Notes: generated from the letters alone by a model not told the origin. 64,000 nt of DNA from Escherichia coli (GCF_030013205.1 NZ_CP122649.1), one strand, 5' to 3'. Numbered from the stretch's first letter, positions 3,671 to 62,435 are shown. Program-made: numbers and translations.

Positions 3671-3681
3671 AAAGTAACTTT
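3671..3681. promoter_or_regulatory. AAAGTWACTTT palindrome site
   Basis: Exact match, between convergent umuC and dsbA-like 3' ends. Confidence 0.6.
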
Positions 3682-4510
3682 AGCCTCCACGGGCCTTCTG
3701 GATTGCGTATTTCAGGGTGGCCTCGTCAACAGCGCCCGGGATGAATGACGTCGTTGCAGCGTCGGGTTTTTGCATGTTCATAATAATGAACCCTGGCGTA
3801 CCGTTAATCCCGAGAGCTTCCCCCAGCTGCATGTTTCCGGAGATAACGTTCTCATAGCGGCTTTTCTCCCGATCGCCGAATGAGCTGTTGAACCCGGATT
3901 TGTTCACAACCATGTCTAAATCATTGAGTGTAAACGCACGCTGGTTGTTGAAGAATACATACGCACTGGTCATCAGATTGTTGTGATACTTACGATACGC
4001 TTCCGCACCGAATGTCTGATACACATGCAGGCCTGTCGCCGCCCCCATTGCGGAAACAGGTTTTGAGCCAGCGAAGATCGGAAATTCTTTAAAGAAGAAC
4101 TTTACATCAGTGCTTTGGCTCAACACAGATTCAACAACCGGCGCTACCTGCATACAGAAATGACACTGGTAGTCGAAAAACTCAATAACAGCGACGGCCG
4201 CATTATCAGGTCCGATATTGGGTGTCTCTTTGGTCTCGAAGAGTGCCGGTGCGTAGGGGATAATCCGCTCAAGGGAAGCGTTAGTATTTTCTTTTTCTAG
4301 CGCCTTACCTGCTTCGAGAAGATACTGGGGATTTTTTACCAGATAGGAAGCAGCTACTCGTCCTATTTCGTCGTTACCCGGTACATCGGGTTTTAGATAT
4401 TTCGACGTAATATACACAGAGCCAGCCGTCGCAATCACCGCAGAAATTAAAACAGACGCCACGGGTTTTAAATAATTTAATTTAATCATAGCCACCTTTA
4501 CGCATTTCAA
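3680..4510 (-). CDS. thioredoxin-fold thiol:disulfide oxidoreductase (DsbA-like)
   Basis: CHFC redox motif after an N-terminal membrane/signal segment. Confidence 0.65.
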   Translation of the reverse strand: MKCVKVAMIKLNYLKPVASVLISAVIATAGSVYITSKYLKPDVPGNDEIGRVAASYLVKNPQYLLEAGKALEKENTNASLERIIPYAPALFETKETPNIGPDNAAVAVIEFFDYQCHFCMQVAPVVESVLSQSTDVKFFFKEFPIFAGSKPVSAMGAATGLHVYQTFGAEAYRKYHNNLMTSAYVFFNNQRAFTLNDLDMVVNKSGFNSSFGDREKSRYENVISGNMQLGEALGINGTPGFIIMNMQKPDAATTSFIPGAVDEATLKYAIQKARGG

Positions 4511-4595
4511 CTTGTTAGTTATCAGCCTGCGTTCGATTATACTGGCACGGTATATCGGAATTATTCATTAAAGAACCCTTTTTGGAGGATTTAGA

Positions 4596-5207
4596 ATGTT
4601 ACGGCAATTTTTCTTACTAACAGCCACAACGTTCTTATGTGGATGCGGTTATCATTTTGGAAATGACGTTGATGCGTACGATTTACTGCCCCGCCCGGTA
4701 GGCAGCAAGAAATTTGAAATTGTTGCTCCGGATGACAGTATTCAGTCGCGAATGTTTGCAGCCCGGTTTGCGAGCGGATTAACGGGTAAGGGGTTTAATA
4801 TTTCCAGCCATCAGCCCGAATATATTCTCAGATTCAGTTACAGCAAGACCCAGGAGAATCTGCAATACAGTGAACTACCGGTGACGGGAATAACCGGATA
4901 TGTTATCGAGAAGAAAACAACGCGAAAAGATAAGCACGGGCAAACTGAGACGGACTATGACTATAAGCCGGTCAGTGGGATCGTAGGAACAGAGACGGTA
5001 TCACAAAGACATTTCTGGCGTCGTCTTGATGTGGAAGTCTACCCTGCGGGAAAAAATGCACAGCAGGTGCTAAAAGTCAGTATGCAGAGCAATGCGCCGA
5101 TCCCATCGGACAGCGTGGCGTATTCCGCAATGATTGACGCTTTGACCGGGAATCTGGATGCCCCGCTGCGCTCCGGAAACTACGTCGCCTCGGTCCCCTG
5201 GAACTGA
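4596..5207 (+). CDS. lipoprotein
   Basis: N-terminus LLTATTFLCGCG fits a lipobox. Confidence 0.55.
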   Translation: MLRQFFLLTATTFLCGCGYHFGNDVDAYDLLPRPVGSKKFEIVAPDDSIQSRMFAARFASGLTGKGFNISSHQPEYILRFSYSKTQENLQYSELPVTGITGYVIEKKTTRKDKHGQTETDYDYKPVSGIVGTETVSQRHFWRRLDVEVYPAGKNAQQVLKVSMQSNAPIPSDSVAYSAMIDALTGNLDAPLRSGNYVASVPWN

Positions 5208-5265
5208 TGACCGGCACTGTAACGACCAACCACAAATTAACTTTTCTCACCTGCATGCCACGTCT

Positions 5266-60536: not shown

Positions 60537-60786
60537 TTCGGTTCTCCTGGTTGGCCAGAAAATTTTACCTGAATCGTTTTCTTCGCCCGGGCGCTAAGAG
60601 GGGTAATTGTTCAGTAAAACATCGTCCGTTTGTGTGCTTTTTGCCAGATTTAATCGGCAGGCCTGCGGGAAATACCCCATCCCAATGTCCGTTTTAGGCT
60701 GATTAATTCCCCAGAAATCCCCCCCTTAACGGAAAAATCCGCAGGGCAGACGTTTAAAATAGCAACAACTAAAAGGGGAATACTGA

Positions 60787-62388
60787 ATGAAAAATCAGGC
60801 TATAGCTTTGGCTATGGCTATGCTCGGAGTCTCAGTTCCGGCATCTGCTCAAATTTATGAATCCATCTTCACAGATACCAATGGTATTGAAGTTCACGCC
60901 CCCTCAACCCGGCTGTTGCTGAATCCGGCCTCACCGGTAACCCTGACGCTCATTGCCGGTCTTGACCGTTATGTGAATGTCAAAATCACCAGCGCCACCG
61001 GCACGCAACTGCTGAACACCACTACTACGCGCACCAGCGTATCCGACCGTCTGAAGGCCGGAGATGGCAGCGAATTTTACGGAAAAAAAGTAACTTTACC
61101 GGTGCTTGGCGAAGGCAGGTCGGTTGTGCAGGTCAGTATTCTGGATCTGAATCAGTCCGTTGTAGCCACCTACAGCTACAACTGGCTGGTAGACACCACA
61201 CCGCTGTCTGGTAATGCCCTCACAGGCAACGCCGCCTATGGATCAACTGCGGGTAGCGTCTGGAAAATGGGGCTGGAGGCCACGGGGCAGTTTGATTTTA
61301 CCTCAACCAATGTCACGGACGTAAATGGCATCGAGAAAGGTATGTTTTATGTCTATCACAGTAACGGCAGTCTGTTCAGTACGACGTGACTGGTCAGAAG
61401 ATGTATCACACTTACTCAAAAAACTCGGTCAAAGGCGCGGGTATTCCCGACAGCAATCTGGATGAAGATTTCACGGCCAAGGTAGTCATTTATGACAACG
61501 CAGGAAACACCCGAACCCTTCCGTTGCAGCTCTTTCGATATGATAACTATCTGGGCGGTCCGAGATCCGCAAAGCTCCGCCAGCGTGGTGCCAGGGGTTT
61601 CCGGATATCCGGCCTATTCAGCTGGGATGACCGTTAATGAGAATCCGATTCATCTTGTATATCGCGTGCCAAAGTCCAACTACCGGTCATATGCCGAGGG
61701 CGGCCTGCTATTCTATAACCTGTATTCTTCCCCGACCGAGATTGCGACGGACAGCACCTATACCTACGTTGAAATGATCCTGCCCTAGTACGGTGGTATA
61801 CGGGCTGGAGAATATCCGTATAGCTCTGGCGGATAACCTGACAACACCCCGGATCACCCGTCTTCAGATAACCGGAGGGCCAACGGCAGATAACGTTGAG
61901 CTCACGTGGTCACCTGCTGGCACGAACGTTTATGCGCCAGAATATCCAAGGCTGTTCCCCTCATTCGAGCCTTCCGAAAACTATGCGCTTAGCGTGACGG
62001 TCTCCGACAGTCAGTCGAACAGCAAAACTTATACCCAGAAATTCAGCTACCTCCCGAATAACCTAGTGCAGTTGCATAACCTGCGAACCTTATCCGTCAG
62101 TTCAGCACTCAAAACGTCGTTAAATGAGCCTCTTGCTTATCTGTCAACCAACGTGTTGCGTAAGTCCAACGGTGAGATTGCAAAAACGTCCAGAGTGCGA
62201 CGCTAACGGTACGTAAAGACGCTGCCTTCGGTATTAAGTTCAACGGCGTGCAGGCCGCGCTTGGTGAATCTGTAGAGGTGAAAATTGATATGGGGCTCGG
62301 TGATAACCTTTTAGTACCTATATACCCTGCTGAAAACGGCAAAGTGGGTACATCCGAGTTCATGATCCAGATCGATGAGCTGAAGTAA
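60787..62388 (+). pseudogene. frameshifted paralog of the Big-type protein
   Basis: Track ORFs at 60787-61389, 61386-61637, 61492-61788, 61793-62206 and a final frame to 62388 are each colinear with 58152..60536. Confidence 0.7.
61087..61097. promoter_or_regulatory. AAAGTWACTTT palindrome site
   Basis: Exact match inside the Big-protein pseudogene (CGGAAAAAAAGTAACTTTACCGG). Confidence 0.5.
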
Positions 62389-62424
62389 TGAGAATGGGCC
62401 GTCGGTAGTACTGGCGGCTTAACG

Positions 62425-62435
62425 AAAGTAACTTT
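62425..62435. promoter_or_regulatory. AAAGTWACTTT palindrome site
   Basis: Exact match about 350 bp upstream of repA. Confidence 0.6.

Follow-up and report, generated by a model that had tools for sequence, protein, structure and literature searches.

Distribution of a short palindrome on an IncHI1 plasmid backbone

The window analyzed here, a 64-kb stretch of plasmid DNA from Escherichia coli, has an IncHI1 (R27-type) backbone, which narrows an earlier assignment as IncHI-type only. A motif scan of this window for the palindrome AAAGTWACTTT gave 19 exact matches, and beyond these, two copies with a C at the centre (AAAGTCACTTT) were found at 6125 and 7928. The initial annotation had listed 18 copies, and all 18 of its coordinates proved to be exact, but it had overlooked the one at 16463-16473. 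The sites are given below in window coordinates, without a strand, together with the candidate regulatory gene and its predicted promoter.

3671..3681, site AAAGTAACTTT: where a Y-family polymerase gene and a DsbA-family gene converge, between their 3' ends
6125..6135, C-centre copy: in or beside the short gap that separates two minus-strand genes, ~25 nt ahead of the start annotated at 6103
7928..7938, C-centre copy: within a HAD-domain gene
8206..8216, site: just past the HAD gene stop, in the convergent gap ahead of the end of the TraG-N (trhG) gene
8288..8298, site: in the convergent gap between the HAD gene and trhG, 82 bp from the site at 8206
13825..13835, site: 34 nt into the 5' end of trhH, where it adjoins the preceding gene; the orthologous IncHI2 site is at L007 40611
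16463..16473, site: within the oriT-adjacent gene of 266/275 aa, which is probably trhY
16903..16913, site: 81 nt before the probable trhY-trhR operon begins; kept in IncHI2
17388..17398, site: 192 nt upstream of mobI, gene 1 of the relaxase operon, on the opposite flank of oriT
22124..22134, site: in the coupling-protein gene (traD/TraG), 294 nt from its start; retained both in IncHI2 and in the Lelliottia lineage
23854..23864, site: at the 3' end of the coupling-protein gene, 60 nt ahead of the next start codon; kept in three lineages
28543..28553, site: 169 nt ahead of the small minus-strand gene at 28065..28379
31659..32864, minus strand: orphan ParB-family gene (401 aa), candidate binder, assigned by profile matches and predicted fold
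32914..32941, minus strand: promoter of the ParB-like gene, predicted from sequence and conserved across lineages
32959..32969, site: the proximal of two ahead of the ParB-like gene, at 100 nt; its centre is ~23 nt upstream of the predicted -35 element
33077..33087, distal site: upstream of both the ParB-like gene (by 218 nt) and a divergent 66-aa gene (by 265 nt)
39603..39613, site: ~207 nt upstream of a small minus-strand gene
45841..45851, site: 53 nt ahead of a small minus-strand gene
47118..47128, site: within a PAPS-reductase-family gene
51006..51016, site: ~300 nt upstream of a minus-strand gene (50376..50708)
53940..53950, site: within a divergent promoter region, with a plus-strand gene starting 139 nt further on
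61087..61097, site: in the unannotated stretch (probable pseudogene region) from an Ig-like gene to the next plus-strand genes
62425..62435, site: upstream of a RepB-family replication initiator gene (ORF 62780..63661)

The claim that these copies lie far beyond chance was borne out, as 100 dinucleotide shuffles gave an expectation of 0.03 copies per window against the 19 found, and none of the 100 contained two or more. The whole 216.7-kb plasmid contains 41 copies, compared with 0.15 expected under a first-order Markov model and with only 6 for the runner-up among 5+N+5 palindromes; the tally stands at 19 (+2) for the window and 41 (+4) for the plasmid. Copies with one mismatch were few (just 4 in the window, of which 2 are the C-centre variants), and this sharpness, in which a copy is nearly exact or absent, is typical of parS- and OB-type sites. 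Analysis of the flanks of 105 non-redundant sites from six lineages showed information beyond the core only at position +/-6 (A/T, 72%) and weakly at +/-7, and essentially random sequence past that point; we therefore describe the element as (A)AAAGT-N-ACTTT(T). A suggested extension of the symmetry to CCGG does not hold in general. The proposed half-site link to the oriT palindrome array is weak, since the oriT arms, CATAGGGTCACTTTT and AAAAGTGRCCCTATG, overlap with the motif only in GTSAC plus a single T/A tract, and lone half-sites outside oriT occur at about chance frequency.

All 41 plasmid copies lie in 160 kb of backbone and none in 56 kb of resistance and IS DNA (P=4.6e-6), and the spacing along the IncHI backbone is approximately one site per 4 kb. 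Intergenic positions account for 22 of the 41 sites, compared with 20% of the DNA being non-coding (p=1.6e-6), and a further 6 are located within 140 nt of a CDS 5' end. At the IncHI1B-type locus, 20 of 21 sites are intergenic (p=2.4e-8). The deposited annotation agreed with the contexts that had been read from the sequence, both for the sites upstream of genes (the oriT-adjacent gene, the mobI/relaxase operon, the ParB-like gene, twice, and the Rep gene) and for those at convergent 3' ends or inside coding sequence (trhH, the PAPS-reductase-family gene and, twice, the coupling-protein gene). There are sites on both flanks of oriT and ahead of the R and H operons. When all sites were compared with predicted promoters, no common offset to the -35 and -10 elements was observed. 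Simple operator logic does not explain the 4 IncHI1 sites between convergent gene ends or the 13 that are deep within genes.

Conservation of the sites between plasmid lineages

The motif core also ranked first among palindromes in IncHI2, at two IncHI1B-type loci from Klebsiella, and at the Yersinia, Leclercia-type and Lelliottia loci. A motif scan of related IncHI plasmids, which had been proposed as a check on positional conservation, found IncHI2 counterparts for all nine window sites from 13825 to 33077; seven were identified through alignments that span the site (DNA 67-81% identical), and those of 17388 and 28543 by position only. The counterpart of the site at 16463 has a C/G centre and reads AAAGTGACTTT in the orientation of the IncHI2 locus (L007).

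Within traD, only 12 of 2075 5+N+5 windows are identical in three lineages, and both motif sites are among these 12. At the site at 22124, a change of the centre base alters a codon (N to D) and leaves the arms unchanged. Because the arms are constant while the centre change swaps the amino acid, the sequence comparison indicates that the intragenic traD sites are retained by selection at the DNA level. Altogether, confinement to the backbone, intergenic enrichment, conservation of position between IncHI1 and IncHI2, and retention by DNA-level selection in traD support the conclusion that the copies are a conserved cis-acting network, rather than chance occurrences or a mobile repeat.

All seven lineages examined have a site upstream of the 401-aa ParB-like gene, at a distance of ~90-130 bp in six of them and of ~260 bp in the other. 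The proximal site of the window (32959) is kept in 6 of 7 aligned lineages and is degenerate at that position in the Leclercia-type contig; the distal site (33077) is kept in IncHI2 and has one mismatch in the Lelliottia lineage. IncHI1B-type plasmids contain a cluster of 5-6 sites, all beside a conserved promoter. The related contig L020 has three motif copies, none of them within 400 bp upstream of its member of the ParB-like family. The AAAGT-N-ACTTT motif is absent from IncC plasmids, despite the presence there of an orthologue of the candidate protein (30% identical).

A ParB-family protein as the putative binding factor

The 401-aa protein had been named as the obvious candidate for the binding factor. 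Its membership in the ParB family is upheld by sequence and predicted fold, and sites do lie upstream of its gene; that it binds them is something we infer. The protein begins with a ParB/Srx-like domain in which the nucleotide motifs are degenerate (GACRIRA and GNSNL). Residues 149-209 form a ParB-type HTH, and a P/T-rich, disordered linker (residues 251-328) leads to a C-terminal helical pair. It matches Pfam HTH_ParB, ParB DNA-binding domains in the PDB and, over residues 19-270, a ParB-like PHROG, and its AlphaFold model (block-mean pLDDT ~81-96 over residues 21-240) gave ParB-CTPgammaS, KorB (8qa9), Noc and Spo0J as the best Foldseek matches. The canonical GERR and ENxxR are absent, with GACR/GHCR and GNSNL at the aligned positions, and this replacement of the canonical CTP-binding and hydrolysis residues makes clamp-type sliding doubtful. 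We rejected the possibility that the protein is a KorB orthologue, as it has no KorB domain match and only ~20% identity in structural alignments.

The gene is located among hok/DUF905/DUF957-type genes, of a kind found in plasmid leading regions. No ParA or KorA-like partner adjoins it; its neighbors encode proteins of 93 and 66 aa without HTH or ParA signatures. Identity of the candidate protein among the motif-bearing relatives is only 36-67%. The wider family as a whole shares the recognition-helix pattern S/T-x-x-H-[LIV]-R, and it fails to explain specificity because members on contigs without the motif also have it.

The predicted promoter of the ParB-like gene consists of a -35 element TTAGGA (32941-32936), a 16-nt spacer and an extended -10 element TGgTATTGT (32922-32914), which would place the centre of the proximal site near -59, upstream of the -35 element. 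In three predicted IncHI1B-type promoter modules, the site is centred ~26 nt upstream of the -35 element in two and 22 nt in the third. The geometry of a site at -59 would be equally consistent with action at a distance, activation or repression. Since sites are present upstream of its gene in all seven lineages and its predicted fold is that of ParB, KorB and Noc, the 401-aa protein is most likely the binder of the motif.

Discussion

We lean modestly toward the view that the palindromes are high-specificity binding sites of a dimeric plasmid protein, most likely the orphan 401-aa ParB-family protein, that controls the backbone. In the mechanism that we propose, an HTH dimer would contact one AAAGT arm with each half and ignore the centre base, at ~40-45 sites that span the entire IncHI backbone at a density of one per ~4 kb. 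Some of these sites lie in the promoter regions of transfer, replication, leading-region and many small-gene operons and others are remote or intragenic, and the site at the promoter of the ParB-like gene itself would allow autoregulation. Protein bound at the sites might then steer expression or organization of the backbone in the manner of KorB-OB or of IncC ParB/parS, or alternatively act as a counter-silencer or activator of the VirB/BisD type. Spreading or sliding of the ParB-family protein from the sites, like the direction of the regulatory effect, is likewise something that we infer.

The initial comparison with the KorB operator network of IncP plasmids was apt with respect to copy density and the mixture of promoter-proximal, remote and intragenic sites. 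In the KorB-OB system of IncP-1 plasmids RK2/RP4, which are ~60 kb in size, there are 12 OB sites, a density similar to approximately one site per 4 kb in IncHI. Both elements are 13-bp palindromes with a free or degenerate centre (OB TTTAGCSGCTAAA versus IncHI AAAAGTWACTTTT), both occur at transfer and replication promoters and at the promoter of the regulator (in IncHI, the candidate regulator) itself, and the IncHI protein is predicted to have the same two-domain ParB fold (TM 0.65 for the model against the KorB-KorA co-crystal 8qa9). However, the palindrome sequences differ, the IncHI sites are three to four times as many, and KorB has incC (parA) and korA in its operon, whereas the IncHI candidate has no ParA or KorA-like neighbor. 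The canonical nucleotide motifs of KorB-type proteins, GERRxRA and ENxxR, permit clamp closure and sliding; the IncHI candidate has degenerate versions, GACRIRA (GHCR in its relatives) and GNSNL.

A closer precedent than KorB comes from IncC plasmids and their dispersed parS sites. These plasmids contain 14 dispersed inverted repeats, mostly intergenic with four inside ORFs; purified IncC ParB bound three probes in EMSA, two from plasmid sites and one from an SGI1 repeat, and the authors inferred that all 14 repeats are parS sites (PMC10954446). We independently found six copies of this repeat at one IncC locus. The IncC/IncA system, with the KorB-domain ParB of parAB053, belongs to related plasmids with a MOBH relaxase and MPF-F, and as in IncHI, a perfect palindrome is distributed across the conserved backbone, mainly intergenic with a few copies in ORFs, including one at the promoter of the operon of the binder (in IncHI, the candidate binder). 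Nevertheless, the IncC site, TTTCACATGTGAAA with its flanks, is unrelated to the IncHI motif except for the outer ACTTT/AAAGT pentamers, and IncC ParB is canonical (GERRWRA, ENIQR), has a ParA partner and is 22% identical to the IncHI 401-aa protein. Furthermore, a copy overlaps the parAB promoter in IncC, whereas parA of the IncHI Par1 system has no copy and instead has its own array of 53-bp repeats.

Noc/NBS and chromosomal ParB/parS likewise involve ParB-family HTH dimers, which act on perfect palindromes of 14-16 bp. Noc sites are numerous, dispersed and often intragenic, and both Noc and ParB are among the top structural matches of the candidate. They differ in being chromosomal and canonical CTPases, with roles in division-site control or segregation, and Noc has a membrane-targeting N-terminus. 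VirB (Shigella pINV) and BisD (ICEclc), orphan ParB-family proteins encoded on mobile elements, are transcriptional counter-silencers or activators that exert their effects from parS-like sites some distance away. The resemblance extends to the H-NS/Hha silencing of IncHI genes and to the centering of IncHI sites upstream of the -35 element at conserved promoters, but VirB and BisD use few sites and their sequences are unrelated beyond the family fold.

A different IncHI protein might read the motif, which we regard as unlikely though well worth weighing: the partition ParB of Par1, a 385-aa ParB-like paralogue encoded beside a Dam methylase, or the TrhR/TrhY-HtdA circuit. There are three ParB-family proteins in IncHI1, and since the IncC inverted repeats are the parS of a partition ParB and not of an orphan ParB-like protein, that analogy points to the IncHI partition ParB. 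However, the array upstream of Par1 parA (~17 repeats of 53 bp) includes no motif copy, and the closest site to Par1 is ~950 bp past parB, inside another gene. No site precedes the gene of the 385-aa paralogue in either IncHI1 or IncHI2, and this protein has a different recognition helix (SNTTIAAL). The TrhR/TrhY-HtdA circuit co-regulates most R27 genes, which would suit sites that flank oriT and precede the R and H operons, yet the motif is absent from the F-operon promoter region (window 14901-15511), the reporter operon for control by this circuit, and no known DNA-binding domain was recognized in the probable TrhR and TrhY. The 93-aa neighbor of the ParB-like gene also has no recognizable DNA-binding domain.

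It is quite improbable that the sites are read without a plasmid protein, either by a host factor of the Enterobacteriaceae or through DNA shape, i.e., a bend formed by the A-tract, GTWAC and T-tract or nucleation of H-NS/Hha. IncHI plasmids are strongly controlled by H-NS/Hha, the element is rich in A/T tracts, and the motif stays constant while the candidate protein drops to 36% identity. Against this, an exact 5+N+5 palindrome with a free centre and few degenerate copies argues for a sequence-specific dimer over a shape preference, and both IncC plasmids of the same hosts and the 56 kb of accessory DNA on the same replicon are devoid of the motif; moreover, we know of no E. coli regulator site or published H-NS high-affinity motif that resembles it. 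We give very little credence to a non-regulatory role as marks that a plasmid enzyme recognizes (methyltransferase, nuclease, primase or recombinase), e.g., a self-marking or priming signal around transfer. Such a role would accommodate the many intragenic and convergent sites and the GTSAC and T-tract shared with the oriT arms, and the plasmid does encode orphan Dam-like and cytosine methyltransferases, a toprim protein and several nucleases; but lone half-sites outside oriT are at chance level, and to our knowledge palindromes of 11-13 bp are atypical as methylase or primase sites. Remnants of a mobile or recombinational repeat (MITE/REP-like), or a compositional artefact, would be many and dispersed, as these copies are. 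The element is just 11-13 bp, however, its positions are kept between lineages, in genes too, and only 0.03-0.15 copies are expected, which leaves almost no room for this explanation; a MITE/REP-like repeat is effectively refuted by positional conservation, retention in traD and random flanks past +/-7.

In the literature searched, a backbone-wide site network has not been described for the IncHI family. Tentatively, and with less confidence than in the binding itself, we suggest a backbone-wide orphan-ParB system on IncHI1, IncHI2, IncHI1B-type plasmids and their relatives, which at ~40 sites might silence the backbone or, like VirB, counter-silence H-NS/Hha.

In Salmonella Typhi, multidrug resistance is carried by IncHI1 plasmids, while mcr and carbapenemase genes spread on plasmids of the IncHI2 and IncHI1B types. 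Regulation of IncHI plasmids has so far been attributed to H-NS/Hha and the TrhR/TrhY-HtdA circuit alone, with cis-elements yet to be defined. One invariant 11-13-bp element across IncHI lineages, at promoters for transfer, replication and the leading region, makes the control architecture testable. The site network may account for the joint response of most R27 genes, and if our proposal is correct, it would be the missing layer of cis-elements through which R27 genes are co-regulated plasmid-wide, as htdA mutants have revealed. The network would also be a ParB-family one that operates without a ParA partner, possibly without CTP, and the sites could offer a handle for interference, by site decoys (as SGI1 acts against IncC) or plasmid curing. 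The 401-aa protein would then be the third, independently evolved ParB-family protein to decorate a whole conjugative plasmid, in this case an orphan with non-canonical nucleotide motifs.

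A single palindrome recurs across the IncHI1 backbone

The window matches many large E. coli and Salmonella plasmids at ~100% identity. An assignment to IncHI2, suggested by the BLAST hit list, was dropped because identical protein accessions occur in R27: those of the best-matching whole plasmid record, NZ_CP122645, are also present in that plasmid, which makes the window IncHI1 (R27-type) backbone.

Content of the window
Tra1 transfer region with oriT
Probable trhR and trhY genes
Operon of mobI, relaxase and coupling protein
Long series of small minus-strand genes (hok, DUF905, DUF957 and others)
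Rep gene

At 36188-37971 the small backbone genes are interrupted by a transposase gene of IS1 and by corA (magnesium transporter) with ysgD. This insert resembles a fragment of chromosomal cargo, and no motif copies were found within it. Between 39603 and 45841 the window differs from NZ_CP122645 by 1-2 bp of indels (the site offset shifts by 1, then by 2), which is a trivial strain difference.

A pattern search of the window found 19 exact copies of AAAGTWACTTT. The initial annotation had listed 18, all of which were borne out, but its total was one short, the extra copy lying at 16463. Its view that this number is far beyond chance held against 100 dinucleotide-preserving shuffles of the window, which gave a mean of 0.03 copies and at most one, so that similar counts were never reached. 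Only four one-base variants occur in the window, two of them C-centre copies at 6125 and 7928, and near-variants are therefore so few that the element is close to exact-or-absent. A census of 5+N+5 palindromes in the window counted 21 copies of AAAGT-N-ACTTT and three of the next unrelated palindrome.

The whole 216.7-kb plasmid record, put together from six retrieved segments, holds 41 W-centre (A or T) and 4 S-centre (C or G) copies, with 0.15 W-centre copies expected from a first-order Markov model and 6 copies of the runner-up 5+N+5 palindrome. All 41 W-centre copies lie in the conserved backbone (160 kb; mean spacing, 3.9 kb), and the cargo DNA (56 kb; resistance, IS and metabolic) has none (P=4.6e-6 under uniform placement). 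According to the deposited annotation, 22 of the 41 are intergenic versus 20% non-coding sequence in the backbone (binomial p=1.6e-6), and 6 others lie no more than 140 nt from a coding-sequence 5' end; 13 are deep within genes, and four of the 41 lie between convergent gene ends. Intergenic placement was also found for 20 of 21 copies in a Klebsiella IncHI1B-type plasmid (p=2.4e-8).

The same IncHI1B-type locus (L008) has four copies in ~900 bp directly downstream of a RepB-family initiator gene (163-1017), and both Rep genes of IncHI1 are also flanked by copies (window 62425; record 109335), which suggests that the dispersed copies are linked to replication control or origin organisation. 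Elsewhere in L008 (24828-27271), among genes resembling a leading region, a helicase-C-domain gene comes after a Cas6/CasE-family gene.

The arms of the motif are conserved across lineages

The motif core was the commonest palindrome in each related lineage retrieved; a scan of genome contigs for related loci found 2 loci. No copy was present in the IncC plasmid used as outgroup.

Copies of the motif in related lineages
IncHI2: 10 copies in 41 kb scanned
Klebsiella oxytoca IncHI1B-type: 21 copies in 41 kb scanned
Klebsiella grimontii: 8 copies in 21 kb scanned
Yersinia intermedia: 7 copies in 21 kb scanned
Leclercia-type metagenomic contig: 5 copies in 21 kb scanned
Lelliottia: 5 copies in 21 kb scanned

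Each of the nine window copies from 13825 to 33077 has a counterpart in the IncHI2 locus, seven through alignments across the site and two (17388 and 28543) through position only; the positional conservation that the initial annotation had proposed to look for in related IncHI-type plasmids is thus present in IncHI2. The DNA around counterpart sites is 67-81% identical between IncHI1 and IncHI2, and the centre base varies freely between counterparts. When the coupling-protein gene was aligned for three lineages, only 12 of 2075 5+N+5 windows were identical throughout, including both motif copies. At one of these copies a centre change converts Asn to Asp with both arms unchanged, and selection therefore acts on the DNA and not on the protein.

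Position frequencies from 105 non-redundant sites showed that information is limited to (A)AAAGT-N-ACTTT(T), e.g. AAAAGTAACTTTT, with A or T at the centre in 90% of sites. Flanks beyond +/-7 were random; thus, the proposed extension of the symmetry towards CCGG is not general, and the copies are not pieces of a longer mobile repeat. We are confident that the motif is a protein-binding cis-element under purifying selection.

An orphan ParB-family protein is the candidate binder

The initial annotation had read the copies as a candidate operator network with the ParB-like protein as the obvious candidate binder. The motif itself was confirmed and extended, and this interpretation is supported in part; the binder is tied to the sites by association. 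The candidate is a 401-aa protein (window 31659..32864, minus strand) that matches Pfam HTH_ParB at residues 149-209, a PHROG ParB-like family at residues 19-270, and ParB DNA-binding domains in the PDB. An AlphaFold model built with 18 homologues is confident over residues ~20-245 (block-mean pLDDT about 81-96); beyond these come a disordered linker rich in P/T and a pair of long C-terminal helices. The Foldseek neighbours of the model include ParB-CTPgammaS, KorB (KorB-KorA co-crystal 8qa9, TM 0.65), Noc and Spo0J. Its nucleotide motifs are non-canonical (GACRIRA versus GERRxRA, and GNSNL versus ENxxR in ParB); the aligned IncC ParB has GERRWRA and ENIQR. No ParA gene adjoins the 401-aa gene, and the adjoining 93-aa and 66-aa proteins have no DNA-binding signature.

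The association is positional. In six of seven lineages a copy lies about 90-130 bp upstream of the start codon of the 401-aa gene; in the Leclercia-type contig this proximal position is degenerate and the exact copy is farther upstream, at about 260 bp. Two copies precede this gene in IncHI1 and in IncHI2, and in both Klebsiella plasmids five or six precede it within 900 bp. A profile search recovered 5881 relatives, and covariation was checked in the genomic contexts of four distant ones. Three of these contigs had neither the motif nor any dispersed palindrome; in the fourth (L020) the motif was the top palindrome, with 3 copies, none of them within 400 bp upstream of the family member. Naming the binder from recognition-helix conservation was given up: the S/T-x-x-H-[LIV]-R pattern is shared throughout a wider family of thousands, and the helix therefore does not discriminate the binder.

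Other plasmid-encoded proteins were weighed as binders. IncHI1 encodes three ParB-family proteins, namely the 401-aa protein, an orphan paralogue of 385 aa and the ParB of the Par1 partition system. Outside the window, at L004 26300-27221 (NZ_CP122645 122301-123222), ~17 tandem repeats of 52-54 bp (GTCGCGTAGCGTGGCATTTAACCCCCTTAATCGCCAGGCCATGGAG...) directly precede Par1 parA and presumably serve as the centromere or incompatibility array of Par1. Par1 ParB thus has its own repeat array, and no motif copy was found at its operon, on which grounds it was rejected. The 385-aa paralogue, which shares about 30% identity with the 401-aa protein, is encoded outside the window, next to a Dam-family methyltransferase gene and a DUF4942 gene:

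L010 19857-21014: 385-aa paralogue, IncHI1
L011 4743-5906: 385-aa paralogue, IncHI2

No motif copy lies upstream of it, and its recognition helix differs from that of the 401-aa protein. TrhR/TrhY were rejected as well: the probable TrhY and TrhR, encoded by two genes beside oriT, have no recognisable DNA-binding domain, and the promoter region of the F operon, whose expression is the reporter of TrhR/TrhY-HtdA control in the R27 literature, has no motif copy. Altogether, we lean modestly towards the dispersed motif being the docking site of the orphan 401-aa ParB-family protein, to which it is linked by association.

Predicted promoters lie next to several sites

Alignment of the region upstream of the ParB-like gene showed that a conserved predicted promoter comes after the proximal copy and places the site centre near -59.

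32941-32936, minus strand: predicted -35 element, TTAGGA
32922-32914, minus strand: predicted TGgTATTGT element, after a 16-nt spacer

In the IncHI1B-type locus, near-identical predicted promoter modules (ggggTTGATG/TTGCAG-N16-TATCCTGG/TAACCTGG) occur ~22-26 nt past several copies. Five copies there have the next start codon 107-116 nt downstream, an arrangement that looks like repeated use of one site-plus-promoter cassette ahead of many small genes.

L008 5765-5900: site and predicted promoter module
L008 12334-12450: site and predicted promoter module
L008 19871-19990: site and predicted promoter module

No fixed operator-promoter geometry emerged: when all sites were scored simply for predicted -35/-10 elements, they shared no offset. 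Between both motif copies upstream of the ParB-like gene lies a single-copy inverted repeat, TTTCAC-N6-GTGAAA (window 33030-33047), which also occurs directly after the proximal copy in the IncHI1B-type locus (L008 19883-19900) and was not found in the IncHI2 locus. By analogy with the KorA site, it may be a second, local operator.

The oriT repeats and the dispersed motif

The oriT region (window about 17150-17320), near the mobI start at 17585, contains four tandem units of 42-44 bp, in each of which the arms CATAGGGTCACTTTT / AAAAGTGRCCCTATG form an inverted repeat with 3-9 nt between them. The arms are kept in IncHI2 (L007 about 37209-37297), and a relaxosome accessory protein probably binds there. 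The half-site proposed to connect this array with the dispersed motif was not sustained: the two have only GTSAC and one T/A tract in common, and solitary AAAAGTNAC halves outside oriT occur at about chance frequency. A relationship between the oriT arms and the dispersed element is unproven.

Comparison with known site networks

The closest known systems are the IncC parS network and the KorB-OB network of IncP plasmids. The IncC plasmid NZ_LT985258 (L012) has another dispersed palindrome, ACTTTCACATGTGAAAGT, in six copies in 40 kb, all intergenic (3439, 3898, 9222, 12558, 26836 and 30251; one of them immediately before parA), and its copies correspond to the IncC parS sites already published (PMC10954446). 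The R55 backbone carries 14 such dispersed repeats, of which four fall within ORFs. The ParB of IncC has a KorB domain and, when purified, shifted three probes chosen as representative, two from plasmid sites and one from an SGI1 repeat; SGI1 hijacks partition through mimicry of IncC sites (PMC10954446). The outer pentamers of ACTTTCACATGTGAAAGT, ACTTT/AAAGT, match the IncHI arms, with their order everted.

The likeness in layout to the KorB network, which the initial annotation had drawn, stands; the fold of the likely binder is similar as well, and both likenesses extend to IncC parS. However, the IncHI site sequence is unlike both IncC parS and KorB OB, and the 401-aa candidate is only about 20% identical to KorB and IncC ParB, lacks a ParA or KorA partner and has degenerate CTPase motifs; unlike in IncC, the partition operon has its own repeats. 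Given these five differences, the IncHI network is a member of neither system, and we class the element with the ParB/KorB-family site networks on conjugative plasmids. With IncHI genes known to be silenced by H-NS/Hha and the site lying upstream of the -35, a VirB/BisD-like part in activation or counter-silencing is conceivable.

Full-text searches on the motif and on IncHI regulation turned up no account of the element, with an earlier mention possible, e.g., in the original R27/R478 genome papers; nor did they turn up a ParB-like regulator of IncHI plasmids. The literature consulted on R27 regulation defines no cis-element, and we speculate that the IncHI site network is a candidate for the missing cis-element layer of R27 regulation.
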